The notes under the pieces: generated by a model
Told to the model about the DNA's origin: nothing
The model's input: only the letters and a program-made list of their open reading frames with translations
The model's database searches: none
Assembly: GCA_903821995.1 (NCBI GenBank)
Contig: CAIJNI010000085.1
Location: forward strand, 25,588 to 89,587
DNA: 64,000 nucleotides
DNA from: an uncultured beta proteobacterium
GTDB taxonomy: Bacteria > Pseudomonadota > Gammaproteobacteria > Burkholderiales > Burkholderiaceae
Direction: 5' to 3'
Part shown: positions 30,292-64,000 of the stretch, one piece after another
Layout: every line of letters starts with the position of its first letter
Position numbering within the stretch: position 1 is the stretch's first letter
Made by a program: the position numbers and the translations under genes

Positions 30292-31260
30292 TTATTCAGG
30301 TTTAATTTGACCATCTCGAATAATAATTTTAAGGCGAGCTAAATCTTGCTCTTGAAATTTTTCAAACTCTGAAGCGCTTAGACTATTTGGAGCAAATCCT
30401 GCCCTTTCTGCTTTCTCTTTAGCGTCTTCTGTATTCATGATTTCTGAAATCTTCGAACTTAATTGGTTGACGATAGTACTTGGTGTTTTTGCGGGGACAT
30501 GAATACCATTCCAAGCTACATAGGAAAAGCCAGGAAAGCCTTGTTCGCCAGCGGTGGGTAAATCGGGAAGCCCCTTGTATCTTTTAGTACCGGTAATTGC
30601 AATTGCTTTTAATTTTTTACCTTGAATCATGGGTAGTACTGCAGGTGCCGTGGCGAACATGATTTGAACTTGGCCACTCATGACATCAGTAATAGCAGGA
30701 TTAGTACCCTTATAAGGGACGTGTGTAATTTCCACATGGGCTTGTTGTTTAAACATTTCAGCAGCTAAATGAGGTGCTGTACCATTTCCTGCTGATGCAT
30801 AGTTCAATTGACCTGGCTTAGATTTTGCAAGGTTGACTAAGTCTTTTAAGTTATTAACAGGCAAATCTGGGTTAACTACGAGGATGATTGGAATTGTGGC
30901 GAGAAGGCTTACAGGTCGAAGGTCCAGCGATATGTCATAGGGCATTTTAGGTTGAAGGACATCATTGGCTGTGTAGGAACTTGAGGATAAAAGGAGTGTG
31001 TAGCCATCGGGCGGGGCTTTGGCAACTGCGTCTCCTGCGACTATTCCGCCAGCTGCGGGGCGAGGATCAATAATGACGGCTTGCCCCCAAGCCTGCGTTA
31101 ATTTCTCCCCGAGCATTCTTGCGAGTACGTCAGTACCGGGTCCGACAATTAATTTAATGGGTTTATTAGGATAGCTTGAAGTTTGAGTATCTGCAAGTAT
31201 TTGATTAGTATGGGTTAATTGCAATAAGCCTAGGGCTAAGATGATAATCTTAAGTCTCAT
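30292..31260 (-). CDS. Bug/TctC substrate-binding protein
   Basis: Minus strand (track mislabels +). YPNKPIKLIVG, PPDGYT, SAGNGTAPHL, VPYKG. Confidence 0.93.
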   Translation of the reverse strand: MRLKIIILALGLLQLTHTNQILADTQTSSYPNKPIKLIVGPGTDVLARMLGEKLTQAWGQAVIIDPRPAAGGIVAGDAVAKAPPDGYTLLLSSSSYTANDVLQPKMPYDISLDLRPVSLLATIPIILVVNPDLPVNNLKDLVNLAKSKPGQLNYASAGNGTAPHLAAEMFKQQAHVEITHVPYKGTNPAITDVMSGQVQIMFATAPAVLPMIQGKKLKAIAITGTKRYKGLPDLPTAGEQGFPGFSYVAWNGIHVPAKTPSTIVNQLSSKISEIMNTEDAKEKAERAGFAPNSLSASEFEKFQEQDLARLKIIIRDGQIKPE

Positions 31261-32903: not shown

Positions 32904-33893
32904 CTATTCTTTTTCAATACCTGCTTTTTTTAGAATCTCTCCGATGATAGGAGACTCTTTGCGGCCTTGTTCAAAGACTTTTTCAGGATTGCTATATGAA
33001 GTGCTTACCCCTAATTTTTCAAAAGAATCTTTCACGTCAGGCATCACCATAATACGGCTTAAATCTGAATTAATTTTATTGACAACCGATTGTGGTACTC
33101 CTTTAGGTGCAACAATAGCCCACCATACGGAGGCTTCAAAATTAGGAAAACCTGCTTCCATCATTGTTGGGATATCTGGAAGAACCCCAATGCGCTGAGG
33201 TGAAGTCACTGCTAAAGCGCGAATTTTTCCACTCTTAATAAAAGGCATGGCTGGCGCCATATCGGAAAATACGATTTGGATTTGTCCTGCAACTAAGTCT
33301 GTTACTGCAACACCTGTCCCCTTATATGGAATATGAACGAGATCGACCCCTGTAGCGTTTTTGTACATCTCGCCAGTGATATGAGATTGAATTCCCTTTC
33401 CACCAGAGCCAAAATTCAGTTCACCTGGCTTTGATTTGGCCAGAGCTGTGAGTTCAGCTATTGTTTTAGCAGGTACATTAGGATTGACAACAATGACTTG
33501 ACCAGCAATAGCGACCATAGAAATCGGGGTGAAGTCTTTGTAAAAGTCAAAAGGCATTTGCTTATACAAAAAAGGATTATTGACAACGGTACTGCTGTTC
33601 GTTAAAAGAATTGTGTAGCCATCGGGAGGACTTTTTGCTGCGAGGTCATGGCCAATATTGCCACTTGCTCCTGGCCGATTTTCTACTGTGACTGGTTGGC
33701 CTAATGATTCAGTGAGTTTTTGCCCTAAAATTCTAGCAAGGACATCGCTAGTCCCACCGGGGGGGAATGGCGCAATTAACTTTACTGGGCGGTTTGGATA
33801 ATTCGATTGGGCAAAAGTTGAAGTGAGGGAGACTAAAAACAAAGATCCAATGACGCTGGTTACTCGAAATAAATTGATTAAGATATTTATCAT
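32904..33893 (-). CDS. Bug/TctC substrate-binding protein
   Basis: Minus strand (track mislabels +). YPNRPVKLIAPFPPGGTSD, PPDGYT, SGGKGIQSHI, IPYKG. Confidence 0.94.
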   Translation of the reverse strand: MINILINLFRVTSVIGSLFLVSLTSTFAQSNYPNRPVKLIAPFPPGGTSDVLARILGQKLTESLGQPVTVENRPGASGNIGHDLAAKSPPDGYTILLTNSSTVVNNPFLYKQMPFDFYKDFTPISMVAIAGQVIVVNPNVPAKTIAELTALAKSKPGELNFGSGGKGIQSHITGEMYKNATGVDLVHIPYKGTGVAVTDLVAGQIQIVFSDMAPAMPFIKSGKIRALAVTSPQRIGVLPDIPTMMEAGFPNFEASVWWAIVAPKGVPQSVVNKINSDLSRIMVMPDVKDSFEKLGVSTSYSNPEKVFEQGRKESPIIGEILKKAGIEKE

Positions 33894-39832: not shown

Positions 39833-41446
39833 ATGATTCAAATCACAGAACTAAGACTTCCAATAAGTCATTCTATTGAGGATCTTCTGTCGGCTATTAT
39901 TCATAAGCTCAAGATTCCTGAAATAGACTTGATCAGACATGATATTTTCAAAAGAAGTCATGATGCTAGAAAAAATTCAGAATTATCTTTAATTTATACC
40001 ATTAATGCCTCAGTCAAAGATGAAGAAAAGGTCCTTCATTCTTTGGTCAATGATCCCTATATCCGCCTTGCACCCGATACTAGCTATCATTATGTTGCAA
40101 AGGCCCCAAGTCAAATGAAGTTAAGGCCAGTTGTCATTGGACTTGGACCTTGTGGTTTATTTAGCGCACTTATACTTGCACAAATGGGGTTTAATCCTAT
40201 TGTTTTAGAGCGAGGAAAGCAAGTCAGAGAAAGAACTCAGGACACATGGGGATTGTGGCGGAAAAACATACTCAATCCCGAATCTAATGTTCAGTATGGT
40301 GAGGGTGGAGCAGGGTTGTTTTCTGATGGTAAGTTATATAGCCAAATAAAAGACCCTAAATTTTATGGCCGAAAGGTTATTCAAGAATTTATCAAGGCTG
40401 GCGCACCTCCGGAAATTTTATATGTTTCTAAACCGCATATTGGTACCTTTCGTCTTGTAGGGATTGTCGAAAAAATGCGTGAGGAAATTATTCGTTTAGG
40501 GGGTGAGATCAGGTTTTCGCAGAGAGTTACAGATTTTTATATTAAAAACCAACAGATCACCGGATTGCAATTAGCAAGTGGCGAAGTATTAGAGGCCGAT
40601 CATGTGGTCTTGGCATTGGGGCATAGTTCTCGAGACACTCTGGTCGCGCTTGAGAAAGCAGGAGTGTATTTAGAGGCTAAGCCATTTTCTGTAGGCTTTC
40701 GAATTGAACATCCTCAATCCATTATTGATCAAGCACGCTTAGGACCTCATGCGGGTAATGAAATTATTGGTGCTGCAGATTACAAATTAGTCCACCACGC
40801 GAGTAATGGTCGTGCTGTTTATAGTTTTTGTATGTGCCCTGGAGGGACTGTAGTTGCTGCCGCATCTGAGCCCAACCATTTGGTGACAAATGGAATGAGT
40901 CAATATTCTCGGAACGAAAGAAATGCCAATGCAGCTATTGTCGTTAGCGTTACTCCTCAAGATTACCCAGGCGGACCACTTGCTGGGATAGAGTTTCAGA
41001 GGGAATTAGAATCCAAGGCTTTCGATCTTGGTGGCCAAAATTATGAAGCGCCAGGACAGCTTGTTGGAGATTTTTTAGTAGGAAGAGCTTCATCGGAATT
41101 TAAAACGGTTATACCTTCATATCAACCCGGTGTTCACTTAACGGATTTGTCCACGAGTCTACCTTCCTTTGCTATTGAAGCCATTCGTGAGGCCTTACCC
41201 ATGTTTGAAAAAAAGATTAAAGGGTTTTCGATGAATGATGCCATTCTCACTGGAGTTGAAACGAGGACTTCTTCACCCGTTCGAATTACGCGGGGGCTAG
41301 ATTACCAAAGTTTAAACATCAAAGGATTGTATCCAGCGGGAGAAGGTGCTGGCTATGCGGGTGGTATATTGTCAGCTGGTGTCGATGGGATTAGAGTTGC
41401 AGAAGCTGTTGCGCAAGATTACAGCAATTCATTTGCTTCAAAATAA
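39833..41446 (+). CDS. Uncharacterised NAD(P)/FAD-dependent oxidoreductase (COG2509-like)
   Basis: GLGPCG dinucleotide motif, GEGGAG.FSDGKL, FCMCPGG, ETRTSSP, GEGAGYAGGI.SA. Confidence 0.85.
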   Translation: MIQITELRLPISHSIEDLLSAIIHKLKIPEIDLIRHDIFKRSHDARKNSELSLIYTINASVKDEEKVLHSLVNDPYIRLAPDTSYHYVAKAPSQMKLRPVVIGLGPCGLFSALILAQMGFNPIVLERGKQVRERTQDTWGLWRKNILNPESNVQYGEGGAGLFSDGKLYSQIKDPKFYGRKVIQEFIKAGAPPEILYVSKPHIGTFRLVGIVEKMREEIIRLGGEIRFSQRVTDFYIKNQQITGLQLASGEVLEADHVVLALGHSSRDTLVALEKAGVYLEAKPFSVGFRIEHPQSIIDQARLGPHAGNEIIGAADYKLVHHASNGRAVYSFCMCPGGTVVAAASEPNHLVTNGMSQYSRNERNANAAIVVSVTPQDYPGGPLAGIEFQRELESKAFDLGGQNYEAPGQLVGDFLVGRASSEFKTVIPSYQPGVHLTDLSTSLPSFAIEAIREALPMFEKKIKGFSMNDAILTGVETRTSSPVRITRGLDYQSLNIKGLYPAGEGAGYAGGILSAGVDGIRVAEAVAQDYSNSFASK

Positions 41447-41465
41447 TTTAACTAGGAGAGTTCTA

Positions 41466-42446
41466 ATGTATCGTTTGGGCACTATTAAAGGCATTCTAAA
41501 AAATTGTATCTTCTTATCTTTATTTTTATTAATGGGATTTCAAGCGTTTGCAGATAATTGGCCGTCACGTACTATTAAAGTCGTAGTCCCATTTGGCCCA
41601 GGTGGAGCTAATGATTTAGTTGCCAGGGCCGTAGCTGAAGGAGTATCCAAAGAATTAGGTCAAGCGGTTATTGTTGAAAACAAACCTGGCGCAGGTTCTG
41701 TTTTAGGAGCTGATTTTGTTGCTAAGAGCGCACCAGATGGGTACACATTTCTGGCCCCTGCTGCAGGCATTGTGACAAATAGTCTCATTAAAACAAAGAT
41801 GCCTTATAAAGAAAGCGATTTATTACCTATAGTGATGATATCGGTTAGTCCTTCTATTATTGTGGTTGCGTCAGATTCTCCAGTCAATGACATTAAAGGT
41901 TTAGTTGAAGGATCGAAAAAAATAAAGCCCCTTAATTTTTCAACAGCAGGCACCGGGAGTACGCCGCATTTTGTAGCAGAAATGTTAAAAATTTCAACTG
42001 GAAGTGCCTTTGAAATTATTCCCTATAAAAGTGGTTCAGAGGGGGTATTTGCCGTGGTCGGGCATCAGGTTGATATTACATCTGAGGCTAGTGTAGTAGT
42101 AATACCTCAAATTAAAGGTGGGAAGCTAAAACCCTTGGCATCAACCTGGAGCACCCGAATTTCTGCATTGAATGATGTGCCAACGATGAAAGAGTTAGGT
42201 TATCCCAATGTGTTTATTGGCCACTGGACTGGACTCTTTGCACCTAAAGGCACTTCAGAGGAAATTATGGAAAAAATGAATTTAGCAGTGAATGCTGCTT
42301 TAAAGCGTCCAGAGATCAAAGATAGATTAATGTCGCAAGGGATTGAGCCAGTTGGGGGAGATCTGAAATCCTTTCAAAAATATTTGACTGAAGAGCGAGC
42401 ACGCTTATCTTTGGTTGTGAAATCATCGAATATGAAAGAAGATTAG
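41466..42446 (+). CDS. Bug/TctC substrate-binding protein
   Basis: WPSRTIKVVVPFGPGGAND, APDGYT, TAGTGSTPHF; ATG 41466 preferred because the track start overlaps the upstream gene by 100 bp. Confidence 0.92.
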   Translation: MYRLGTIKGILKNCIFLSLFLLMGFQAFADNWPSRTIKVVVPFGPGGANDLVARAVAEGVSKELGQAVIVENKPGAGSVLGADFVAKSAPDGYTFLAPAAGIVTNSLIKTKMPYKESDLLPIVMISVSPSIIVVASDSPVNDIKGLVEGSKKIKPLNFSTAGTGSTPHFVAEMLKISTGSAFEIIPYKSGSEGVFAVVGHQVDITSEASVVVIPQIKGGKLKPLASTWSTRISALNDVPTMKELGYPNVFIGHWTGLFAPKGTSEEIMEKMNLAVNAALKRPEIKDRLMSQGIEPVGGDLKSFQKYLTEERARLSLVVKSSNMKED

Positions 42447-51944: not shown

Positions 51945-52266
51945 AAAATATCCCTTAAAGTATTTGATCTCAATTTTAGCAAGAAACCAGCAAGAAATCC
52001 CTTGCCTTAAGGAGGAGTCGAACCTTTACAAGATAAGTTTTAAAGCAAGGCAAGATGGTTGACAAATACGGATAGATGTTAGATGACGTCGATTTGTGAT
52101 TAAACATTAGATTACACACGAGATGTGCTCATTTTCTGATGAAGGTTAAAAGCCATGAAGAGTCAACTATTGATTTTTATTTTACACATAAATCATTGTT
52201 TTATATGTATTTTTAATTACTAATGGATGTTGTATTTGTCCGATATTTGTATATAAATTAAGGACT

Positions 52267-52503
52267 ATGAAAGCACTAGTCAAGACAAAAATCCCTCTCA
52301 ATGCGCTGATTGCTCTGCGCATTAGCCGTAGCCCAGCCGATAAGGTTTGGACAGCGAAGGATTGTCTCGATCTGGAGTCGCAACGTAGCCGAGACTTTGA
52401 GGCATCAATTGAGGATGAGGAACGTCATAGAAGAACCCCTGTCACCGCACCTGAAGCCAAGCTCAGGAACTTGCTGCTCACTAGGGAAAGGAACGAGGAA
52501 TAA
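52267..52503 (+). CDS. Orphan hypothetical protein (78 aa)
   Basis: ATG with AAGGA RBS, stop at 52503; no recognisable motif; visibly more GC-rich than its flanks. Confidence 0.4.
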   Translation: MKALVKTKIPLNALIALRISRSPADKVWTAKDCLDLESQRSRDFEASIEDEERHRRTPVTAPEAKLRNLLLTRERNEE

Positions 52504-52572
52504 CAGTTGTATGGTGAAATTGGGGGGAAATTAAGCGGATTTTGCAAAAACCCCACATCAGTTCATGACTAT

Positions 52573-52662
52573 TGGCGGAAGCTGTGAGATTCGAACTCAC
52601 GGAAGGCTTTCACCTTCACCAGTTTTCAAGACTGGTGCATTCAACCGCTCTGCCAAGCTTCC
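52573..52662 (-). tRNA. tRNA-Ser (anticodon TGA), 90 nt with long variable arm
   Basis: Reverse complement GGAAGCTTGGCAGAGCGGTTGAATGCA-CCAGT-CTTGAAA-ACTGG-TGAAGGTGAAAGCCTTCC-GTGAG-TTCGAAT-CTCAC-AGCTTCC-GCCA folds into a class II cloverleaf with encoded CCA. Confidence 0.97.
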
Positions 52663-52871
52663 TCAATTGAAAAAAGATTATATCCTTTAAATGAGTGAAT
52701 TGCCAATTTTGGAAATAAAGGGCATTTTGGCCTATAGTCAATATTTGATTCACCATAATTGGAGCATCTAGTAATTTTTTATGTTTACTGGGCTACTCTA
52801 GAAATAAAATTGACAGATGATAGATATTCAATATACTTTCTGAATTAAATAAAAATTCTAAAGGGGCATGT

Positions 52872-53231
52872 GTGCGAATAACACAAACCATCACAAAGGG
52901 AATGGGACTATGGACCCTTCTTCAATTTGCCTCATTCTCAGCCTTATCTACAGACTTCATCTCAGCGCAACTTGCTGCCTCATGCACTGGTTGCCATAGT
53001 CCATCCATAACTTCATTCTCATCTTCAAAAAATTCAATAATTCCAAATTTAACTGGCATGCCGAGTGCGTATATTGTTAAAGTAATGCAGGAGTATCAAA
53101 AAGGGGAGCGACAGGCGACGCTGATGCATCAAATTAGTAAAGGCTATACAGAAGAAGAAATATCCCAAATTGCACAGTATTTTTCAACATTGAACCCAGC
53201 TACTCCTTTCAAAAAAGGTATAGCGCCATGA
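52872..53231 (+). CDS. Monoheme class I cytochrome c, putative partner subunit of flavocytochrome c sulfide dehydrogenase
   Basis: CTGCH, P.LTG, R...LMHQIS; ATGA overlap with fccB. The start may be GTG 52872 or a slightly later ATG. Confidence 0.82.
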   Translation: MRITQTITKGMGLWTLLQFASFSALSTDFISAQLAASCTGCHSPSITSFSSSKNSIIPNLTGMPSAYIVKVMQEYQKGERQATLMHQISKGYTEEEISQIAQYFSTLNPATPFKKGIAP

Positions 53232-54505
53232 CGCCACGTCGCAATTTTCTTCATTTGATCTCTGGAATAGGTGTCTTAGCCTATGGTGGGCATCAAGTAT
53301 TCGGCCAATCGAGTCCATTCAAAGCAAAAGTCATCGTTGTTGGTGGTGGCTTTGGAGGGGCGACAGCTGCTAAATACTTAAAAATATTCTCTAACGGAAA
53401 AATAGACGTTACATTAATCGAACCTAATCAACATTTTATTTCGTGTCCAATGTCTAATTTGGTAATCTCTGGGGACAAAAGTATTACAGATATCACTTTT
53501 GGATATGAGCAGTTAGTTAAAAAATATGGTGTTCATTTGATTCATGCCAAAGTAGAACAAATTGATTCTCAGAAAAGAGTGGTTGCTCTCTCTAATGGTA
53601 AGAAACTGAACTATGATCGGCTGGTCTTATCACCGGGAGTTGATTTTCTATTTGAGAAAATTGCGGGATTGGATGAGGATGCTCAAAAAGTAGCCTTACA
53701 TGCATGGAAAGCCGGCCCTCAAACCCTCGCTTTAAAGGCTCAATTAGAGGCAATGCCTGATGGAGGGGTTTATGGAATTTCAATTCCGCTTGCGCCTTAT
53801 CGTTGCCCACCTGGGCCCTATGAGCGTGCTACTTTGATTGCAAACTATTTTAAGCAATTTAAGCCACGCAGCAAAGTGTTGATACTCGATGCCAATCAGG
53901 ATGTTACATCCAAAGGACCTTTATTTAAGAAGATTTGGGCAACGCGTTTTAAAGAGTTGATTGAATATCGAGGATTACATCAAATTGAATCAGTTGATAT
54001 TAAAAACAAGACAATACAATTTGAGGCGCAAGGAGAATTAAAATTAAATATTGTAAATATTTTACCCCCGATGCAGGCGGGTAAAATTGCCGTGGATACA
54101 GGATTGATAAAGCCAAATCAACGCTGGTGTGAAGTCGATTTTCTTACATTTGAGTCCAGGGTGGTTCCTAATATTCATGTGATAGGAGATGCGATTCAGA
54201 ATGCCCAACTGATGCCTAAGTCAGGGCATATGGCAAACCAGCATGGCAAAGTGTGTGCATCAGCAGTGGTTGCGTTATTAAGTGATCATGAGGTTAACCC
54301 GGCACCTATATACAACAATACTTGTTATAGTTTTGTTTCTAAAAATGAAGCAATTCATGTAGCGAGTGTGCATCGCTATGACGCCATTCAAAAAACAATG
54401 TTGCCTGTTCAAGGCGCTGGAGGATTATCTGTTGAAGCAAACGAGCTAGAAGGACTTTATGCGAACTCTTGGGCTAACAATATTTGGTCAGATTTCTTAG
54501 CCTAA
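53228..54505 (+). CDS. fccB: Flavocytochrome c sulfide dehydrogenase flavoprotein subunit (FccB/SoxF)
   Basis: Tat signal RRNFL, GGGFGG, FISCPMSN, YRCPPGPYER, MPKSG..AN, NTCYS. Confidence 0.9.
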   Translation: MTPRRNFLHLISGIGVLAYGGHQVFGQSSPFKAKVIVVGGGFGGATAAKYLKIFSNGKIDVTLIEPNQHFISCPMSNLVISGDKSITDITFGYEQLVKKYGVHLIHAKVEQIDSQKRVVALSNGKKLNYDRLVLSPGVDFLFEKIAGLDEDAQKVALHAWKAGPQTLALKAQLEAMPDGGVYGISIPLAPYRCPPGPYERATLIANYFKQFKPRSKVLILDANQDVTSKGPLFKKIWATRFKELIEYRGLHQIESVDIKNKTIQFEAQGELKLNIVNILPPMQAGKIAVDTGLIKPNQRWCEVDFLTFESRVVPNIHVIGDAIQNAQLMPKSGHMANQHGKVCASAVVALLSDHEVNPAPIYNNTCYSFVSKNEAIHVASVHRYDAIQKTMLPVQGAGGLSVEANELEGLYANSWANNIWSDFLA

Positions 54506-54506
54506 G

Positions 54507-54872
54507 ATGAAATTAAAATTTATATTTTTGGTATATCTATTACAAATATTGAGTATCAATGTTTTTGCACAAGAAAGTGATGTTAAAACTTTGATTAGAT
54601 CTCCGCTATTAGGTAACTGTATTACTTGCCACCAATTTCCTGGTGAAGCTGGTAAGCAGGGTAACTTTGCTCCTAGTTTGATTGGAGTTGGTAAAAAATA
54701 TAATTTAGATCAACTCAAACAATGGATTTCAGATGCTAGAGTTTTAAATCCTAATACATTGATGCCCCCTTTTGGCTCGATTAATGGGTTAAGTCAACCC
54801 ATGGTCAATCAACCCGTATTAACAATTGAACAAATTAATAAAATTGCCCTAGAATTGAAAACTTATAACTAA
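54507..54872 (+). CDS. soxX: SoxX-like cytochrome c
   Basis: GNCITCH, GNFAPSL, NPNTLMPPF (Met ligand); first gene of the soxXYZA order. Confidence 0.82.
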   Translation: MKLKFIFLVYLLQILSINVFAQESDVKTLIRSPLLGNCITCHQFPGEAGKQGNFAPSLIGVGKKYNLDQLKQWISDARVLNPNTLMPPFGSINGLSQPMVNQPVLTIEQINKIALELKTYN

Positions 54873-54877
54873 ACGCA

Positions 54878-55339
54878 ATGAATACAAATATTCTTTCACT
54901 TCGCCGTCTTCTATTAAAAGCTCCTTTAGTTAGTTTGGCATTGCCGCTATTTTCTGAGATTCGATTTGCACAAGCACAACCTAGCAGTGTTATTGACGCT
55001 AAAGCTGAAATCTTAGGTATATCAGTAACTCTTGCGGGCGTAAAAATTATTTTTCCAGAACTTTCTGACAATGGGAATTCTATACCCATTTCTTTTACAG
55101 TTAATCCGCCGCTGGGGAGATCAATTAATCAAATTGAAATTATTGCTCCCGGTAATCCATATCCTAAGCTTCTTAAGATCAATCCGGGGGTGCATTACTT
55201 GGCCTACCAATTTGCGACAAGAATTCGCCTTGCGACTGCACAAAATGTTTGGGTTATCGCCAAGCTAGATAATGATCAGGTCATTGGTGCATTTGCCCCT
55301 ACTGTACTTACCTCATCTTCATGTTGGGACGGCACATAA
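54878..55339 (+). CDS. soxY: SoxY paralogue (sulfur carrier) with non-canonical C-terminal arm SSSCWDGT
   Basis: Tat-like LRRLLLK, P.L.DNG..IP, NPYP, TRIRLA; lacks the GGCGG terminus. Confidence 0.78.
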   Translation: MNTNILSLRRLLLKAPLVSLALPLFSEIRFAQAQPSSVIDAKAEILGISVTLAGVKIIFPELSDNGNSIPISFTVNPPLGRSINQIEIIAPGNPYPKLLKINPGVHYLAYQFATRIRLATAQNVWVIAKLDNDQVIGAFAPTVLTSSSCWDGT

Positions 55340-55683
55340 TGGCAACTCTTGAGAATATGATTAATAGGACTCGGATCACTGTGTCTGAGTCAAAGCAAGA
55401 TGCAAGCCTGTTGGATGTGAAAATCCTTATTGCACACGTGATGGAGAATGGATATAGGTTAAACGACGATAGTCAGCGTATTCCCGCGCATATTATTACT
55501 GACTTGAGTGTCTCTCTTAATAGTGAGGTTGTTTTTTCATTAAGTATTAGTACAGGTATTGCTGCTAACCCAATTTTTATGTTCCCCATTAAAAAACCAG
55601 AAAGGCCAAGTAAGTTAGCGGTAGCTTGGATAGATGATTTGGGAGAAAAAGGATTTGCAACCAAAGAAATCTTTATTCAATGA
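55339..55683 (+). CDS. soxZ: SoxZ-like sulfur carrier partner
   Basis: VKILIAHVMENG.R, IPAHII, IAANP, WIDD.G; TAATG coupling to soxY gives the start at 55339. Confidence 0.82.
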   Translation: MATLENMINRTRITVSESKQDASLLDVKILIAHVMENGYRLNDDSQRIPAHIITDLSVSLNSEVVFSLSISTGIAANPIFMFPIKKPERPSKLAVAWIDDLGEKGFATKEIFIQ

Positions 55684-56432
55684 AGTGGTTAATCCCCTTT
55701 TTGATAGCTTGCTCTTTATGTTGCCAAGCAGAAGAAAGACAATCTGGTAATTTTTTCTTAAGTCCCGATCTAAGGCAGCTTGGATTTGAAAAAGGAGCAA
55801 ATCCAATTGAAATTTGGATTGATATTGGGCAAGTGCTATGGCGCGATAGCTCTAATGGAAAGAGTTGTGAATCATGTCATGGCGCCATGAGTAACCTTAA
55901 GGATGCTGTGAGATCCTTACCTCAAATCTCTCGAGATGGAACCCGGCTAGAAAATCTTGAGGATAAAATTCTTTTTTATCTCAACGCATCTCGTGAAAAA
56001 AAACTTACGCTAGATAGTGATGAAGTTGTGGCATTGAGTGTTGCTATACAGCAAAATGCCAAAGATTCTGTGATTCAAATGCAACCGCAACTCCAGTCCC
56101 AAAGGGTTTGGAATGAACAATTAAAAGCGGGTACTGATTTGTTTTATCAACGTATGGGGCGTATGAACTTATCCTGCTCCCAATGTCATGATCAAAATAT
56201 AGGAAAAAACTTAAGAGCGGATGTGATTAGTCCTGCTTATCCCACGGGATTTCCGGTCTATCGAATGGCTTGGCAAAAGCCAGGTACGATGGATCGACGC
56301 TTGAGGGCTTGTTATTTTGGAGTTCAAGCAAAGGTGCCAGATGTGGGGGATGCTGAGTTAAGACAATTAGAATTGTTTTTAAAAGTGAGGGCACAAGGGA
56401 TGGTCTTAGATGGCCCCTCTTTAAGAAGATAA
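55680..56432 (+). CDS. soxA: SoxA-like diheme cytochrome c (L-cysteine S-thiosulfotransferase family)
   Basis: CESCH and CSQCH heme motifs, GFPVYR, RLRAC active-site Cys; ATGA overlap with soxZ. Confidence 0.85.
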   Translation: MKWLIPFLIACSLCCQAEERQSGNFFLSPDLRQLGFEKGANPIEIWIDIGQVLWRDSSNGKSCESCHGAMSNLKDAVRSLPQISRDGTRLENLEDKILFYLNASREKKLTLDSDEVVALSVAIQQNAKDSVIQMQPQLQSQRVWNEQLKAGTDLFYQRMGRMNLSCSQCHDQNIGKNLRADVISPAYPTGFPVYRMAWQKPGTMDRRLRACYFGVQAKVPDVGDAELRQLELFLKVRAQGMVLDGPSLRR

Positions 56433-56461
56433 AAAAAGTCCGCTAGTTAAATAGCGGACTT
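56431..56461 (-). terminator. Rho-independent terminator for the iorAB-like transcript (possibly shared with the sox genes)
   Basis: AAGTCCGCTA-N6-TAGCGGACTT stem with a T run on the minus strand. Confidence 0.85.
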
Positions 56462-56490: not shown

Positions 56491-58689
56491 TTAAGCCAAC
56501 TTCAGGCCATGTTTGCGTAATGGCAAATCTCTTTGAGGTTTACCGGTTGCTGCAAAAATTGCATTAAGAATGGCCGGACCTACAACACAAATTGTAGGTT
56601 CTCCAACTCCACCCCAGAAATCATTAGTGGGGACTAAAACGGATTCAACTTTTGGCGTGTGTTTTAATCGCGTCAGTTGGTACTTATCAAAGTTTAACTC
56701 CTCTGCGCGGCCATCTTTAATCGTGATTTCGCCATTAAATATTGCAGACATAGCCATAGCCACAGAACCTTCAATTTGCGCCTTAACCTGAGAAGGATTT
56801 ACCACATGACCAGAATTCAGAGCGAAGTACATTTTATGAACTGTGACTTCACCAGCGGGCGTGACTGAGACCTCTGCAACTGCTGCGGAATAACTGGCAT
56901 AACCCATGAACTGAGCAATACCGCGGTGAACTCCGGGTGGCAATGGTTTTCCCCATTTGGCTTTCTTCGCTACTGCATTGAGCACTCCTAAATGTTTAGG
57001 ATGATTCTTCATTAAGGCCCGACGAAATTCTAAGGAATCTTTACCGGCAGCCTTAGCGCACTCTTCAATAAAGCACTCCATATATATGCCATTTTGATTC
57101 GTATTAACACCCCGCCAAGGTCCAACAGGAACATGCGTATTTTTCATCACATATTCAGTTAGTAAATGAGGGAATGTATAACCTAACTGTGCATCACCTG
57201 CCTCCTCATAAAAACCCTGTAATTGGCGCGTATCTTTATTGTTCTTAATTGCCATTGGACTTAATAAGGCATTAATTGATTGGCCACTGACACGAACATG
57301 AAAGCCGGTGATATTGCCTTGATCATCAAGGCCGGCAGACATTTTTGCAACAGAGATTGGTCGATAGAAATCGTGAGACATATCTTCTTCTCGGCTCCAC
57401 ACCAATTTCACAGCAACGCCTGGAAATTGTTTTGCAATTGCAGCAGCTTGGGTTACATAGTCTTGCGTGCCGCCTCTGCGACCTAAGCCACCTCCAAGAT
57501 CGACTTTATAGATTTCACATTTATCCAATGGCAATCCAGTTGCTTGAGCTAATGAGGCATGGGATGCTTCACCATTTTGGGTTGGGACCCAAGCCTCGGC
57601 CTTATCTGCTGTAACTCTGGCTGTGCAATTCATTGGTTCCATAGTGGCATGCGCTAAAAAGGGAGAGCTGTAGACAGCATCGACTCTTTTAGAAGAAGTT
57701 TTAATAGTATTTAACGCATCCCCTTCTTTACGTTGCCAATAGTCGCCTTCAGCCTCGAGTCCATCTCGTAAAACCTTATCAATTGATTGGCTTGAGACTT
57801 TGGCGTTTGGACCTTCGTCCCAAACAATGGGGAGTGCGTCCAGGGCAACCTTAGCGCGCCACCAAGTATCAGCGACGACTGCAACCGTATGACTATCAAC
57901 TTTAACTACTCCCTTGACTCCGCGCATGGCCATAATTTTGGAGTCGTCAAAGCTTTTGAGGGTTCCACCATAAACTGGACAATCTTTAATCGCAGCACAG
58001 AGCATTCCTGGTAATTGGAGATCAATAGCGAACACTTTTGATCCATCGACCTTGTTGGCAGTATCTAGGCGTTTTAGTCCTTTACCAGCAACTTTCCAAT
58101 TCTCAGGCTTCTTTAGGACAATACTTTTTAAATCAGGTGGTGACAAGAGGGCAGCATCGCTAGCCACTTTGCCATAATTGATCTTTCTACCAGTGTTAGC
58201 ATGAGAAATAATCCCTTTGCTCACAGTGAGTTCTTGGACGGGGACTTTCCATTGGTTTGCGGCTGCTTGTAAAAGCATCATACGTGCTGCGGCGCCACCG
58301 CGCCTCACATAATCCTCTGAAGTCCTTATACCGCGACTACCCCCGGTACCCATTTCTCCCCAAACACGCTTACGGGCATGATTTTGTCCAGGAGTTGGCA
58401 TTTCTGTAGTTACTTTTGACCAGTCGCATTCAAGTTCTTCTGCAACAAGTTGAGCAAGTCCAGTGAGGGTCCCTTGTCCCATTTCAGATCGAGCAATACG
58501 AATGACACAGGTGTCATCTGGTTTGATAACGACCCACGCATTAATTTCTTTGACTGTTCCAGTCATGGTCTGTGCACTGAGGTCAAAGGGAATTGCCATA
58601 CCAAGGACAAACCCACCACCTGCCATTGATGTTTGCACCAGGAAGTTTCGACGGGACGGGCTAGTTACTTTATTTAAAGTTGTTGTCAT
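56491..58689 (-). CDS. Xanthine dehydrogenase family molybdopterin-binding subunit (isoquinoline 1-oxidoreductase beta, IorB-like), Tat-exported
   Basis: Minus strand (track mislabels +). SRRNFL, RSEMGQG, TGGS, HATMEPMN, GGGLGRRG, GPWRGV, GGVGEP. Confidence 0.9.
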   Translation of the reverse strand: MTTTLNKVTSPSRRNFLVQTSMAGGGFVLGMAIPFDLSAQTMTGTVKEINAWVVIKPDDTCVIRIARSEMGQGTLTGLAQLVAEELECDWSKVTTEMPTPGQNHARKRVWGEMGTGGSRGIRTSEDYVRRGGAAARMMLLQAAANQWKVPVQELTVSKGIISHANTGRKINYGKVASDAALLSPPDLKSIVLKKPENWKVAGKGLKRLDTANKVDGSKVFAIDLQLPGMLCAAIKDCPVYGGTLKSFDDSKIMAMRGVKGVVKVDSHTVAVVADTWWRAKVALDALPIVWDEGPNAKVSSQSIDKVLRDGLEAEGDYWQRKEGDALNTIKTSSKRVDAVYSSPFLAHATMEPMNCTARVTADKAEAWVPTQNGEASHASLAQATGLPLDKCEIYKVDLGGGLGRRGGTQDYVTQAAAIAKQFPGVAVKLVWSREEDMSHDFYRPISVAKMSAGLDDQGNITGFHVRVSGQSINALLSPMAIKNNKDTRQLQGFYEEAGDAQLGYTFPHLLTEYVMKNTHVPVGPWRGVNTNQNGIYMECFIEECAKAAGKDSLEFRRALMKNHPKHLGVLNAVAKKAKWGKPLPPGVHRGIAQFMGYASYSAAVAEVSVTPAGEVTVHKMYFALNSGHVVNPSQVKAQIEGSVAMAMSAIFNGEITIKDGRAEELNFDKYQLTRLKHTPKVESVLVPTNDFWGGVGEPTICVVGPAILNAIFAATGKPQRDLPLRKHGLKLA

Positions 58690-58700
58690 AATGATTACCC

Positions 58701-59201
58701 TTAAGCTTTAGATGGAGCATCCATAGATGCGTAATTGGCAAGAACTTCAGTTAACTTCTTTTGCCCAGCTGCTACATGAATAGCATCGCGGATTCGTTGA
58801 TAAGTTCCGCAGCGACAAATATTTCCCATTGCAACATCAATATCGGCATCCGTAGGTTTAGGGATTTTCTTAAGTAATGCAGTGGCAACCATAATTTGCC
58901 CAGATTGGCAGTACCCACACTGTGGCACATCAAGATCGTTCCAAGCCTTTTGAACTGCGGTGGAGGCGTTTTTAGATAAGCCCTCGATCGTAGTGATTTT
59001 TTGCCCTTCGACTGCAGACGCAGGGATAGAGCAAGAACGAATGGGATCGCCATTTAAATAGACTGTGCAAGCTCCACATTGAGCTACTCCGCATCCATAT
59101 TTAGTTCCTGTGAGGCCAACAATTTCACGAATAGCCCACAATAAAGGCATTTCTGGTTCTACATCTATATTATGGTTAGTACCGTTTATATTTAGATTCA
59201 T
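58701..59201 (-). CDS. 2x[2Fe-2S] subunit (IorA/CoxS-like)
   Basis: TKYGCG..QCGAC, QCGYCQ, CRCGTY. Confidence 0.93.
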
Positions 59202-59740: not shown

Positions 59741-60973
59741 ATGAGCAATTTCACAAATAAATTAGAAGCCGGTTTGAAAAGTTCACCTGTTGTGGTGTGG
59801 ATGAAAAATAATAAAAAACAATCCTTTGTTATTGCTGGATTTCTTCTGGTTTTAATCATTTGGCTTTTTAGCCTTTTAATATTACAGTTTCAAAAGAAAG
59901 TTGATATCCAACCACAATCTTTACCAACTAACTCTATTTCAGTAAGTGCGGATCAGGCTAAAGAAATCAAGGTGGGGAATATTTCTTATCTTGATTTTGA
60001 AGAAATCAGAGAAGCAGTTGGTTTAATTGATTTTGATAAAAACCATACTGCTGAAGTTTATTCACCCTATCAGGGAAGAGTGGCTAAGGTTTTTAAGGTT
60101 GCAGGTGATGACGTTAAAGAGGGGGATGCATTATTTACCGTGTTAGCTCCAGATGCTGCGCAGGCATCAGCCGCTCTTGTATCTTCAGCCGGTGTCTTAA
60201 AGCAAGCTAATGAAACATTAAAAAGAGCTCAAGAGCTATATGATTTTAAGAGCATATCTCTAAAAGAGTACCAGCAAAATCTTTCAGATCAGCAAACGGC
60301 TGAGGGTAATTATTTGGCCGCCAAAAAATCAATGGAATTATTTGGTTTTACGCAGACAGATATTGCAGAAGTCATTGCTGGTCGTAAAGTGGATATTGAA
60401 TTATCTATTCGAAGTCCTTACAGCGGCAGAGTGGTTTCTAGAGCGGTGGCTGTGGGTCAGTTGGTCCAACCTGGAAATGGCCCCGCGCCCTTTGTTGTGT
60501 CAGATACAACGCACTTATGGATGGTTGCAAACGTACCAGAATCCGAGATTCCTTTGTATCATGTGGGGCAAAGTGCGCACGTCAAAGTACAGGCTTACAT
60601 GGATAAGTTGTATTCTGCAAAGATTATATATGTCGCTGATTCTGTTGATCCGGTGACTCACCGGCTTATTCTGAGAGCTAAGATTGATGACCCAAGGCGT
60701 GAGTTAAGGGCAAACATGTTGGCAAGTTTTGTGATTGGACTCAATCCCCCTATAAATTCGATTGCCATACCAGAAACAGCTTTGGTACGAGACTCCGATG
60801 GAAGTGGGATTGTTTGGGTTACGAATGATGGTAAAAATTTCACACGGCGCATCGTCAAGGTTGGGATATTTCAAGCGGGTTATGTTCAAATTCTGGATGG
60901 ATTGAAAGAGGGGGATTCTATTGCACTGACCAAAGCGATCTACCTTAGCAATCTTTATAGCATTTCACGATAA
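59741..60973 (+). CDS. czcB: RND efflux periplasmic adaptor (CzcB/CusB-like)
   Basis: N-terminal TM anchor, SPYQGRV lipoyl motif, alpha-hairpin, IRSPYSG.V, VDP.T, IPETAL, GLKEGD. Confidence 0.85.
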   Translation: MSNFTNKLEAGLKSSPVVVWMKNNKKQSFVIAGFLLVLIIWLFSLLILQFQKKVDIQPQSLPTNSISVSADQAKEIKVGNISYLDFEEIREAVGLIDFDKNHTAEVYSPYQGRVAKVFKVAGDDVKEGDALFTVLAPDAAQASAALVSSAGVLKQANETLKRAQELYDFKSISLKEYQQNLSDQQTAEGNYLAAKKSMELFGFTQTDIAEVIAGRKVDIELSIRSPYSGRVVSRAVAVGQLVQPGNGPAPFVVSDTTHLWMVANVPESEIPLYHVGQSAHVKVQAYMDKLYSAKIIYVADSVDPVTHRLILRAKIDDPRRELRANMLASFVIGLNPPINSIAIPETALVRDSDGSGIVWVTNDGKNFTRRIVKVGIFQAGYVQILDGLKEGDSIALTKAIYLSNLYSISR

Positions 60974-61006
60974 CAGCTTAATTACTATTGGATGCTAGAT
61001 TAAATA

Positions 61007-64000
61007 ATGTTTAAGCCCTTACTGAAGTTTGTCTTAAGTCGTAGGCCAATAGTTTTATTGGGGCTAGTTGCTTTTATTGTTGCCGGAGTGTTAGCTTTTG
61101 TAAGATTAAACGTAGAAGCTTATCCCAATCCTGCGCCAGTGATTATCGAAATAACAGCTCAATCACCGGGGACTTCTGCTGAAGAAATGGAGCGTTATTA
61201 CACCCGTCCGATGGAGATTGGTTTGGCAACAACTCCCGGGGTTGATATCATTCGGTCTACTTCATTTGCTGGGTTGTCTTTTGTAAGAGTAACTTTTAAG
61301 TATGGCGTTGATTATTATTTTGCACTCACGCAAATTACGAATAATCTTTCTCAAAACGTCAATCTACCGAATGGTGTTTTGCCACAGATCCAAGCATCTA
61401 GTTTGGTGGGAGAAATATTACGATATCAATTAAAAGGGCCTTCAAGCTATAGCTTGACTGACCTGAGGACTCTCCAAAACTGGGTAGTGGTTAGAAGGCT
61501 TTTGACTACACCAGGGATCGTTCAAGTTGTTACTTGGGGTGGGACTACAAAAGAATACCATGTTGAAGTTGACCCTAAAAAATTAGAAAGTTATAGCATT
61601 ACATTGCAGCAGCTTCTGAGCTCAATAGGAAACGCAAATTCTAATGTAGGCGGAAGATCTGTCAGTGTTGGTGACCAATCCATTAATATTCGTGGCGTTG
61701 GACTCATTGCATCGCTCGCAGATATAGAAAAAATTGTGTTGACCCAGGTCAATGGGATACCAATTTCTGTGAGAGATGTGGCAAAAGTTTCTGAAGGTTA
61801 TGTTCCTAGGTTAGGAGAAGCGGGTCGAGATGATCAGAAAGATGTAGTTACTGGCATCATTATCATGAATCGCACTTTGCAAACAAAAGAGGTGATTAAA
61901 CTTGCTGAAGAGGCTGTTGAGCGAATTAATCATGATGGAAGTTTGCCTCAGGGGGTCAAAGTTGTTCCTTATTATGATCGGTCCGGTTTAATTGGGGTAA
62001 CCACTAAAACGGTGATACATAATCTTATTTTTGGTTGCTTATTAGTATTCTTTATTCAGTGGATTTTTTTAGGAGACTTGCGAAGTGCTGTCATTGTTAG
62101 TATTAACATACCGTTCGCACTTTTCTTTAGCATCATCATCCTAACGCTCACTGGCGAATCTGCGAATCTTTTATCTTTAGGCGCTGTCGATTTTGGGATT
62201 ATTGTCGATTCGGCAGTTATTCTTATTGAAAATGTATTTAAAAACTTCCAGCAACGCCCAGAGGATCGAATGCGTATGCTCAGAAAGATGGCCTTTACAT
62301 CTGACAGTGAGGTTGCTGATCCATCTTATGGATGGTCTGTTCGTTTGCGGTTAATTTACTACAGTGCAATTCAGGTGGATACTTCTGTTTTATTCTCTAC
62401 AGCTATTACTATTGCTGCCTTTATTCCATTATTTACAATGCAAGGGGTTGAGGGACAAATTTTTGGCCCTATGTCGCGGACCTATGGTTATGCTTTAGCA
62501 GGAGCATTATTAGCAACTTTCTCTATTACACCCGTGATTGCATCCTATTTCTTGCCGCGTAGAATAGAGGAAAAAGAGACAAAAATTGTTCAAGCCATTC
62601 GCGATTTTTATACTCCTAAATTGCATTGGGTAACAAGCCACACAAAGCCGATTTTGGCGATTGGAGCTGCTTCTCTATTGTTAGGTGGCTTCATGATGAG
62701 CCAACTTGGCAGTGAATTTTTGCCTGCTCTTGAAGAAGGCAATTTATGGATTAGAGCTTCCATGCCACCCACAATCTCGTTGGAGGCGGGTACTGAAAAC
62801 GTTCACCGGATGCGTCAAATCATTAAAGCGCATCCTGAAGTTATCACTATAGTTTCGCAGCATGGTCGACCCGATGACGGAAGTGATGCTTCTGGTTTTA
62901 ATAACGTAGAGCTATTCGCAGCCCTTAAGCCTTTTGAAGAATGGGATAAAGGGATGACAAAAGAAAAGCTTGTTGCAAATCTTCAAAAAGAATTCGAAGA
63001 TGCATTCCCAGGGGTAACTACAAATTTTTCACAATATATTCAAGATAACGTTCAAGAGGGCTTGTCTGGAGTTAAGGGAGCTAATTCAGTTAAGATTATC
63101 GGTCCTGACTTAGTGACATTAGAAGGAATAGCTACCCAAGTTAAAAAGATTATGGAGACTATTCCAGGGGTGACTGATTTAGGTATTTTTTACATCATGG
63201 GTCAGCCTAATTTAGATATTCGCATTGACCGTGATAAGGCGGCTCGGTTTGGGCTAAATACAGGCGATGTTAACGCTGCAATCCAAGCTGCTTTTGCTGG
63301 TACTGTAGCGACTACTGTTTTGCAAGGTGAGCGTCATTTTGATCTGACTGTTCGTTTAAAAGCGGAAAGTCGAATGAATATCCAAGATGTTAAGAATTTA
63401 AGGGTTGGGTATACAACTTCAAGTGGAAGTGTTGCTTATATCCCGTTGGATGATATCGCTAAAATCACTTTAGATACTGGAGCGAGCTATATTTATCATG
63501 AAAAAAATGAGAGGTATATCCCTATTAAGTTTAGTACTCGTGGAAGAGATCTTGGTAGCACGGTGCAAGATATTCAAGATCGAATTACTCAAGAAGTACC
63601 TCTGCCAGAAGGGTATCGCATTACTTATGCTGGAGAATTTGAAGAGATGCAAGCTGCGCAAAAACGCTTAGCAATTGTTGTGCCCATTGCTTTTGCCTTG
63701 ATCTTTGCGTTTTTGTATGCACTCTTTAATAATTTAACTTATTGCTTGTTAACGTTTTCAGGCGTACCGTTTGCCGCATTAGGTGGTGTAGTTGCTTTGT
63801 ATATCTCTGGTCAAGCGCTAAGTGTTTCAGCAATTATTGGTTTTATCTCATTACTTGGCGTTTCAGTCATGAACGGTATTTTGATTCAAACCTTTTTTGT
63901 GGATTTGCTGCATTCAGGTAAGTCGAAGTTGGATGCGGTCATTGAGGCTCATGAACATCGTATGAGACCTTTATTAATGACAGCTCTTTCTGCTGCGATT
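61007..64000 (+). CDS. czcA: Heavy-metal efflux RND permease, CzcA type; open at the 3' window edge
   Basis: Not in the track. ATG 61007 reads MFKPLLKFVLSRRP...VEAYPNP; TM4 AVDFGIIVDSAVILIEN; the window ends in frame at MRPLLMTALSAAI. Confidence 0.88.
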   Translation, partial: MFKPLLKFVLSRRPIVLLGLVAFIVAGVLAFVRLNVEAYPNPAPVIIEITAQSPGTSAEEMERYYTRPMEIGLATTPGVDIIRSTSFAGLSFVRVTFKYGVDYYFALTQITNNLSQNVNLPNGVLPQIQASSLVGEILRYQLKGPSSYSLTDLRTLQNWVVVRRLLTTPGIVQVVTWGGTTKEYHVEVDPKKLESYSITLQQLLSSIGNANSNVGGRSVSVGDQSINIRGVGLIASLADIEKIVLTQVNGIPISVRDVAKVSEGYVPRLGEAGRDDQKDVVTGIIIMNRTLQTKEVIKLAEEAVERINHDGSLPQGVKVVPYYDRSGLIGVTTKTVIHNLIFGCLLVFFIQWIFLGDLRSAVIVSINIPFALFFSIIILTLTGESANLLSLGAVDFGIIVDSAVILIENVFKNFQQRPEDRMRMLRKMAFTSDSEVADPSYGWSVRLRLIYYSAIQVDTSVLFSTAITIAAFIPLFTMQGVEGQIFGPMSRTYGYALAGALLATFSITPVIASYFLPRRIEEKETKIVQAIRDFYTPKLHWVTSHTKPILAIGAASLLLGGFMMSQLGSEFLPALEEGNLWIRASMPPTISLEAGTENVHRMRQIIKAHPEVITIVSQHGRPDDGSDASGFNNVELFAALKPFEEWDKGMTKEKLVANLQKEFEDAFPGVTTNFSQYIQDNVQEGLSGVKGANSVKIIGPDLVTLEGIATQVKKIMETIPGVTDLGIFYIMGQPNLDIRIDRDKAARFGLNTGDVNAAIQAAFAGTVATTVLQGERHFDLTVRLKAESRMNIQDVKNLRVGYTTSSGSVAYIPLDDIAKITLDTGASYIYHEKNERYIPIKFSTRGRDLGSTVQDIQDRITQEVPLPEGYRITYAGEFEEMQAAQKRLAIVVPIAFALIFAFLYALFNNLTYCLLTFSGVPFAALGGVVALYISGQALSVSAIIGFISLLGVSVMNGILIQTFFVDLLHSGKSKLDAVIEAHEHRMRPLLMTALSAAI

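Follow-up and report, generated by a model that had tools for sequence, protein, structure and literature searches.

A gene set of the kind considered here has been described once before, in Starkeya novella in 2013, and was left without an assigned function. The second sox cluster of that organism, soxX2Y2Z2A2F2 (Snov_1982-1977), forms one operon with a xanthine-oxidase-family molybdenum (Mo) enzyme (Snov_1975/1976), contains neither soxB nor soxCD, is not induced by thiosulfate and shows hardly any expression with thiosulfate, with methanol or with glucose (Kappler et al. 2013, PMC3797975). A 2026 survey counted about 1000 each of “insulated” soxA, soxX, soxY and soxZ paralogues, all uncharacterised (PMC13500833), a 2024 SoxY phylogeny discarded the sequences without GGC, and a study of SAR324 reported divergent SoxY and SoxZ on either side of an Fcc and, as a separate finding, an isoquinoline oxidoreductase. 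NCBI curates the family TIGR04487 as “SoxY-related AACIE arm protein”, without function, and our literature searches found no paper linking this SoxY arm class to a function. The present analysis concerns a stretch of 64,000 nucleotides from an uncultured beta proteobacterium (contig CAIJNI010000085.1; hereafter the window), in which a six-gene operon, fccA-fccB-soxX-soxY-soxZ-soxA, is met from the opposite strand by the two genes of a molybdenum hydroxylase, iorA and iorB.

As judged from sequence comparison, a widespread periplasmic cluster of eight genes, built around the AACIE-arm class of SoxY, is represented at this locus by the copy of a Polynucleobacter related to P. rarus. The cluster type is known, though functionally unexplained; the present copy is divergent and rearranged, and its interest lies more in the fixed eight-gene unit than in the tryptophan-containing arm of its SoxY. 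Scanning for AACIE-type SoxY gave 596 sites in 185,579 species genomes; the best 80 of the 596 were kept, and 57 had enough flanking sequence. These 57 loci come from several phyla and lie on a single strand in the order iorA-iorB-fccA-fccB-soxX-soxY-soxZ-soxA, with the Mo subunit present in 56, the iron-sulfur subunit in 53, fccB in 54, soxXYZA in 56, an fccA orthologue 5' of fccB in 45 and the eight-gene context in 53, these fractions being biased towards the fccAB layout because the 80 loci were selected by their closeness to one SoxY linked to fccAB. The Mo subunits at the 56 loci are 45-58% identical to IorB of the window.

A SoxA-based scan of species genomes revealed 36 loci, 33 of them non-GGCGG, and homologues of the window IorB and IorA (47-76% identical; 47-71% for IorB alone) adjoin soxXYZA in about 20 of these 33. 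All eight genes are present in the window, with iorAB inverted and converging on soxA. This convergent position just 3' of soxA recurs across the whole Polynucleobacter/Comamonadaceae clade. Among Bacteroidota and the other Burkholderiales, iorAB lies directly upstream of the sox genes on the same strand. No further conserved neighbour (a hydrolase, a regulator or an XdhC-like chaperone in the place of SoxB) was found in the related loci.

The cluster never includes SoxB. With a query confirmed as TIGR04486 at 859 bits, SoxB was located beside all three GGCGG loci and beside none of the 113 non-GGCGG loci examined, and none was found in the 64-kb window by tblastn, phmmer or Pfam on large open reading frames (ORFs). 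The first-pass annotation of this DNA had described the operon as a paralogue of the thiosulfate Sox genes with no soxB or soxCD nearby, and both statements are borne out.

By analogy, the eight genes may encode an oxidation system that is based on a carrier protein and distinct from the thiosulfate-to-sulfate pathway, with SoxAX loading and IorAB oxidising, a reading to which we give a rough probability of 0.45. On this view SoxAX would load Cys149, in the flexible C-terminal arm of SoxY(Z), by oxidative attachment of a sulfur nucleophile. The likeliest candidates are sulfide or polysulfide that FccAB makes or handles, or else an organic thiol; the part of FccAB would be to make or handle sulfide-derived sulfane sulfur. 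IorAB would fill the slot of SoxCD and SoxB: it would oxidise the tethered group with oxygen drawn from water, and its electrons would leave through two [2Fe-2S] clusters for the c-type cytochromes that the gene cluster itself encodes. The bulky hydrophobic and acidic residues after the cysteine would adapt the arm to these partners and not to SoxB. The stronger claim of a new periplasmic carrier pathway, in which a xanthine-oxidase-family Mo hydroxylase acts on a group tethered to the SoxYZ cysteine arm, is regarded as doubtful. If true, it would be the first enzyme of that family acting on a protein-bound substrate and would provide a sulfur or organosulfur oxidation route free of SoxB and SoxCD in hundreds of soil and freshwater species.

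Several points weigh against the proposed oxidation system: (i) the bias of the AACIE-locus counts towards one layout; (ii) we know of no xanthine-oxidase-family enzyme acting on a protein-tethered substrate or on a sulfur atom; (iii) neither in the window nor in its nearest relatives is iorAB transcribed together with the sox genes; (iv) both iorAB and fccAB are missing from the vicinity of soxXYZA in one related locus (L003, SoxY 46% identical) and in the Limnohabitans-type loci; (v) SoxA and SoxX pass the NCBI thiosulfate-type equivalog cut-offs; (vi) in some loci a lone Sox set is accompanied by two or three iorAB pairs in tandem, which fits an ordinary dehydrogenase family sharing an electron acceptor. 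To these is added that the proteins of the second S. novella cluster were barely expressed under every condition tested (PMC3797975). A search for RNA runs covering the present locus returned none.

The SoxY paralogue (C-terminal letters ...TVLTSSSCWDGT) keeps the ATRIRLA core and has the C-terminus ...APTVLTSSSCWDGT, its arm reading VLTSSSCWDGT. The core and arm given by the first-pass annotation are confirmed from the translation and are identical in an independent assembly (L009), and the arm is indeed not of the GGCGG type, canonical representatives ending in VTIGGCGG. The protein has a Pfam SoxY match at 7e-14. Its AlphaFold2 model has a core with predicted local distance difference test values above 90 and an arm of low confidence after the last strand, and the top fold match is Paracoccus pantotrophus SoxY (2oxg_Y, TM 0.79). 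The fold, the flexible cysteine arm and the pairing with SoxZ of a canonical SoxY are all present, soxZ lying directly 3' of soxY. Among three SoxY-type models the AACIE-arm model TIGR04487 gives the best score (57.8 bits, below its cut-off of 172); the GGCGG model TIGR04488 gives 50.1 bits (cut-off 125), and the score is consistently higher for the former. In the profile comparison suggested by the annotation, the protein thus falls far below both curated cut-offs.

An exhaustive HMMER search for relatives of this SoxY gave 291 representatives, 174 of them usable. The arm T-x-[AS]-A-C-[LFIVYMW]-[DE]-x-x, usually with four residues after the cysteine and DGT as the commonest tail, is carried by 124 of the 174, and a GGC-type arm by 33. 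The window protein is placed in a clade of 33-36 sequences, all with the former pattern. A profile search with this subclade produced 307 clusters and the arm T-S-[ST]-A-C-[FL]-D-x-[TS] in all of 112 new representatives; position -1 is Ala in 108 of them, and position +1 is Phe or Leu without exception. The cysteine is invariant among the relatives; Ser stands at -1 in the window arm, where 118 of the 124 relatives have Ala, and the Trp at +1 is unique among about 290 relatives inspected. Set against the subclade consensus, TSSSCWDGT is therefore TSSACFDGT with A replaced by S (-1) and F by W (+1). The window arm is thus a conservative variant of the consensus TSSAC[FL]DG[TS], itself a variant of the AACIE pattern (small-small-Cys-hydrophobic-acidic), to which S-S-C-W-D conforms.

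Four related proteins exceed the AACIE cut-off (L005, 219.9 bits; L034, 186.2; L021, 179.8; L036, 172.5), all within a soxX-Y-Z-A module, which belongs to an iorAB-soxXYZA arrangement in L021 and L036 and to fccAB-soxXYZA in L034. A third, new arm class was rejected, since the arm pattern is common to the relatives and the AACIE-passing proteins occupy a like module; the view of the arm as a class apart from AACIE accordingly did not survive. One subclade member (P0204) is named “thiosulfate oxidation carrier protein SoxY” by NCBI despite its non-GGCGG arm, and the JGI name for subclade proteins is “sulfur-oxidizing protein SoxY”.

Such names would suit a reserve or condition-specific set of SoxAX and SoxYZ, charged with thiosulfate or sulfide and supplying canonical SoxB and SoxCD encoded in trans, the outcome that the first-pass annotation had set as its own refutation. 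This is distinctly unlikely, even though SoxA and SoxX score above the thiosulfate-Sox equivalog cut-offs and the SoxA active site is canonical. The active-site channel by which SoxB receives the arm is narrow. In the SoxB-SoxYZ structure 4uwq the arm is threaded into this active site, and in the window the four glycines of the arm are replaced by Ser, Trp and Asp. Several sox sets within one genome are on record: P. asymbioticus has three clusters, including one large and one of four genes, Pnuc_1154-1157 (Hahn et al. 2012, PMC3308952), the last being probably, though unverified, this soxXYZA module; S. novella has a full sox cluster in addition to the second one (PMC3797975); B. diazoefficiens has a full set plus soxY2 (PMC5748708), the arm class of soxY2 not having been checked. 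Against a role in thiosulfate oxidation stand the lack of thiosulfate induction of the second S. novella cluster and the dispensability of soxY2 (with the same reservation on its arm) for thiosulfate oxidation. A spare-part role would also leave unexplained the constant linkage with iorAB and fccAB and the absence of SoxB from all 113 loci.

The first two genes of the operon encode a flavocytochrome c. FccA has a Pfam Cytochrom_C match, and its closest solved relative is 5n1t_B (E 2e-11, residues 22-104), the monohaem partner of the sulfide dehydrogenase flavoprotein 5n1t_A, which is in turn the top structure match of FccB (E 7.5e-100, followed by 1fcd_A at 1e-92). In public metagenome gene calls fccA is only 57 residues long, without the CxxCH haem motif, and soxX is shortened to 114 residues; the long forms of both carry signal peptides. 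The long form of FccA aligns with 5n1t_B, so the 57-residue call is too short, and the position of a promoter-like site (a consensus match only) about 35 bp 5' of the first gene likewise favours the 119-residue form. The FccB alignment retains the segments ..SCPMSN.., ..YRCPPGPYERA.. and ..NTCYS.., with three catalytic cysteines, and Pfam reports FCSD_central (2.5e-38) and FCSD-flav_bind (2e-21). FccAB has the FCSD domains, cysteine set, twin-arginine translocation (Tat) signal and adjacent cytochrome of a flavocytochrome c sulfide dehydrogenase.

SoxX scores 65.9 bits against NCBIfam TIGR04485 (cut-off 61), and its gene is conserved 5' of soxY in almost all related loci. SoxZ has a Pfam match at 3e-21 and reaches 73.1 bits with the NCBIfam SoxZ_true model, below the cut-off of 76. 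SoxA scores 163.9 bits against TIGR04484 (cut-off 110), has a Pfam SoxA/TsdA match at 2e-16 and aligns over its full length with 2c1d_A and 1h31_A, both haem motifs and the ligand cysteine being retained. SoxAX therefore belongs to its family by score and by haem ligation: the cut-offs are passed, the Cys-ligated SoxA haem is kept, and SoxX has its one His/Met haem. Tat signals are found in IorB, FccB and SoxY, and Sec signals in FccA, SoxX and SoxA; all eight products are exported or co-exportable, and the catalytic residues of SoxA, FccB and IorAB are intact.

The first-pass annotation had proposed a periplasmic relay that might load another cargo, such as sulfide or polysulfide from Fcc, onto the carrier. 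In the corresponding reading FccAB would oxidise sulfide, the sulfane sulfur would be stored or moved on Cys149 with the aid of SoxAX, and the molybdoenzyme would be unrelated. The Fcc partner is real and recurrent: here fccAB and soxXYZA make up a single tight operon, fccB stands 5' of soxX in 54 of the 57 AACIE loci of the biased sample described above, and all catalytic cysteines of FccB are present. As the whole account of the cluster this relay is nevertheless very unlikely. It explains just six of the eight conserved genes and overlooks IorAB on the other strand, which is the most constant neighbour, at least as constant as fccAB, and far better conserved than the Sox proteins. In the window's own Polynucleobacter clade iorAB is the sole partner kept throughout, with fccB usually absent and iorB retained, and on this ground Fcc was rejected as the defining partner.

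IorB contains the Pfam domains MoCoBD_1 and MoCoBD_2, and its closest solved relative over the full length is 8gy3_C (E 1e-63), the large subunit of a membrane-bound aldehyde dehydrogenase. IorA has NCBIfam matches to the 2Fe-2S subunits of xanthine-oxidase-family enzymes, reaching no NCBIfam equivalog cut-off, and is 59-76% identical to cluster-linked homologues. Like enzymes of the IorAB/AldGH type, the pair consists of a Mo large subunit, which bears the Tat signal, and a distinct small subunit that holds two [2Fe-2S] clusters; an FAD subunit is absent. No gene for a dedicated cytochrome c subunit adjoins iorAB in the window, and none is conserved in related loci; the only cytochromes of the cluster are FccA, SoxX and SoxA. 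Between the window and distant phyla the Mo subunit is 56% and the iron-sulfur subunit 63% identical, compared with 29-36% for the Sox proteins (SoxY 29%), and IorAB is thus the best conserved component. Tandem iorA-iorB pairs, two or three of them 5' of one fccAB-soxXYZA set, were observed in the alphaproteobacterial loci L150, L158, L163, L173, L175 and L177; the tandem IorB copies are all 47-58% identical to the window IorB, which suggests that the molybdoenzyme has diversified while the remaining cluster is shared.

These features also agree with the main rival to oxidation on the carrier, in which IorAB would be an ordinary dehydrogenase of the periplasm, acting on aldehydes or N-heterocycles, for which FccA, SoxX and SoxA serve as the electron outlet and SoxYZ and FccB only as a redox-active thiol accessory or regulator. 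Enzymes of the IorAB/AldGH type normally need a c-type cytochrome subunit, and the closest relative 8gy3_C belongs to a complex that includes a trihaem cytochrome subunit. Here, as in the related loci, no dedicated multihaem cytochrome gene stands beside iorAB; SoxA and SoxX together carry three haems, and several loci combine tandem iorAB duplicates with a single Fcc/Sox set. The explanation is nonetheless unlikely. It does not account for the cross-phylum conservation of the arm cysteine and of the Cys-ligated SoxA haem, a haem of very low potential and a poor acceptor, and soxXYZA also occurs without iorAB.

The last circumstance counts equally against a role of the carrier in cofactor repair, in which a persulfide on SoxYZ, derived from sulfide via FccAB or from thiosulfate via SoxAX, would restore the terminal Mo=S of IorAB in the oxidising periplasm. 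Support for it is indirect: loss of the sulfido ligand inactivates xanthine-oxidase-family enzymes, a sulfur carrier is strictly paired with such an enzyme here, and no gene for an XdhC-like sulfuration chaperone is conserved beside iorAB. Repair of this kind is, however, without precedent, and six genes would be a large outlay for the upkeep of one enzyme, which makes it most improbable; oxidation by IorAB of a group carried on SoxY remains the preferred explanation.

The features of the locus are collected in Table 1. Of the five junctions between the six ORFs, the first and the last are overlaps of 4 bp, the second and third are gaps of 1 and 5 bp, and at the fourth the ORFs overlap in TAATG; these junctions confirm the tightly coupled run, with gaps of at most 5 bp and several overlaps, noted at first reading. 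The host lineage is indicated by the phosphomannomutase of the window, which is 79% identical to a Polynucleobacter rarus protein, further Polynucleobacter genomes coming next; the G+C content of the window is about 40%, and the contigs carrying the locus come from stratified-lake metagenomes. At least 16 metagenome contigs encode an identical SoxA. The independent assembly L009 is 99.88% identical to the window across 18.3 kb, with no differences within the operon; the SoxY terminus is therefore not an artefact, contrary to one case that had been held to refute the first reading, and dN/dS between the two is uninformative because the operon has no differences. A sequencing artefact or pseudogene was likewise rejected, since the operon is identical in L009 and the arm pattern is kept in 46%-identical relatives.

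Table 1. Features of the locus and its surroundings (window coordinates unless another locus is named).
Feature	Position	Strand	Remarks
Six-gene operon	52872-56432	+	fccA to soxA
fccA	52872..53231	+	monohaem cytochrome c subunit of flavocytochrome c; 119 aa, GTG start, signal peptide, CTGCH
fccB/soxF-like	53228..54505	+	flavoprotein; 425 aa, Tat signal RRNFL, FAD-linking Cys, redox Cys pair
soxX	54507..54872	+	monohaem cytochrome; 121 aa; CITCH; LMPPFG
soxY paralogue	54878..55339	+	153 aa; Tat-like RR signal; arm T145-S-S-S-C149-W-D-G-T153
Cys149 codon of soxY	55322-55324		
soxZ	55339..55683	+	114 aa from ATG overlapping the soxY stop; 120 aa if start at 55321
soxA	55680..56432	+	dihaem cytochrome; 250 aa; CESCH, CSQCH; haem-ligand Cys in RLRAC211Y
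iorB-like	56491..58689	-	molybdopterin-binding subunit, xanthine-oxidase family; 732 aa; Tat signal SRRNFL; GVGEP motif
iorA-like	58701..59201	-	subunit with two [2Fe-2S] clusters; 166 aa; no signal peptide; both Cys motifs readable
Promoter-like site	52810..52837	+	TTGACA-16-TATACT; 11/12 matches
Terminator-like hairpin	56436..56461	.	ten pairs; in the 58-bp gap between convergent soxA and iorB stop codons
Stretch between pgi and operon	51945-52870		0.9 kb
78-aa ORF	52267-52503		
tRNA-Ser(TGA)	52573-52662	-	
21-bp junction core in soxY	55005-55025		encodes EILGIS
RND efflux operon	59741-64000		beside iorA
TctC/Bug paralogues	2984-3943, 5049-6029, 8568-9599, 15837-16844, 29282-30262, 30292-31260, 32904-33893, 41346-42446		Pfam PF03401
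Four-rhodanese protein	L025 4309-6783		homologues in L026, L029, L031, L038, L039, L041

For the hairpin the strand listed is the minus one, on which a run of T follows the stem. The 0.9-kb stretch upstream of the operon contains a tRNA gene, besides which an Rfam scan of this long intergenic stretch gave nothing, and a 78-residue ORF for which no family match was found. Next to iorA lies an RND efflux operon, 60-79% identical to an operon located 5' of soxX in L015, L018 and L020, which are related Polynucleobacter/Burkholderiaceae loci; the neighbourhood has therefore been rearranged around the cluster and is not newly acquired. Eight paralogues of TctC/Bug-family periplasmic solute receptors were identified in the window, an expansion typical of Burkholderiales. 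In the Limnohabitans-type loci an 824-residue protein with four rhodanese domains recurs two genes 3' of soxA, after aroE. It may be a further sulfur-transfer link or a chance synteny; as a replacement of SoxB it was rejected, being separated by aroE and absent elsewhere.

Two short metagenome contigs, L205 and L002, join soxY to foreign AT-rich DNA at a common 21-bp core. L205 matches the window up to 55025 and L002 from 55005 on, and their foreign halves, when joined, form an intact AlpA/Xis-like helix-turn-helix ORF. A smallest k of 21 is usual in metagenome assemblers. The junctions reflect either a mobile element integrated in soxY in part of the population or an assembler chimera at a 21-mer. 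P0001, a “97% identical variant”, and the fragment P0003 were rejected as natural SoxY variants, since they derive from junction contigs at this core, and they were left out of the comparisons because of the foreign DNA.

The wider bearing of the cluster follows from its frequency, one narrow arm pattern being matched in at least 580 species genomes. Beyond the main cluster, sox paralogues occur very commonly; they are annotated as thiosulfate-oxidation genes and counted as such in metagenome studies. The class forms an eight-gene unit that never occurs with SoxB, and caution is therefore needed in inferring sulfur-oxidation potential from soxA, soxX, soxY or soxZ matches alone. A vague problem of duplicate sox genes is thereby turned into a defined, testable eight-gene system, for which culturable hosts have been identified: Starkeya novella, Methylobacterium planeticum, M. 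soli, Enterovirga, Roseiterribacter gracilis and Polynucleobacter. In Polynucleobacter, an abundant lake bacterium, the cluster may mark an unrecognised periplasmic energy source in humic or stratified waters.

Compared with the canonical Sox system of P. pantotrophus, the window is alike in the SoxY fold, TRIRLA core, cysteine arm, SoxZ partner, SoxX and Cys-ligated SoxA haem. The differences relate to the arm, which is without GGCGG, and to SoxB and SoxCD, which are absent from the window and from the 113 related loci; where the canonical system has the sulfite-oxidase-family SoxCD, the cluster has a xanthine-oxidase-family enzyme. FccAB shows no difference in sequence features from flavocytochromes c (5n1t, 1fcd) and SoxEF/SoxF, its operon fusion with a paralogue Sox module being the unusual trait. 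The Mo enzyme resembles the IorAB/AldFGH hydroxylases (isoquinoline 1-oxidoreductase, 8gy3) in subunit make-up and Tat signal, whereas it has no cytochrome c subunit gene of its own and is linked instead to fccAB and soxXYZA.

The quinoprotein-dehydrogenase-associated SoxYZ-like carrier TIGR04557 is likewise tied to a periplasmic dehydrogenase and not to SoxB. It is, however, a SoxY-SoxZ fusion linked to pyrroloquinoline quinone enzymes and lacking SoxAX (PMC11237559), in contrast to the separate genes and SoxAX of the window, whose SoxY (34.5 bits) and SoxZ (43.3 bits) do not reach the cut-off of 140. With the AACIE family TIGR04487 the window SoxY shares the arm pattern of about four residues after the cysteine, the soxX-Y-Z-A module and the neighbours (a gene context established here and no part of the family definition), but its score lies far below the 172-220 bits of true members, to which it is about 29% identical. 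The second cluster of S. novella, likened here by its published description and not by sequence, has the same kind of gene set, SoxAX, SoxYZ, SoxF/Fcc and a Mo enzyme, and the window differs from it in the inversion of iorAB relative to the sox genes.

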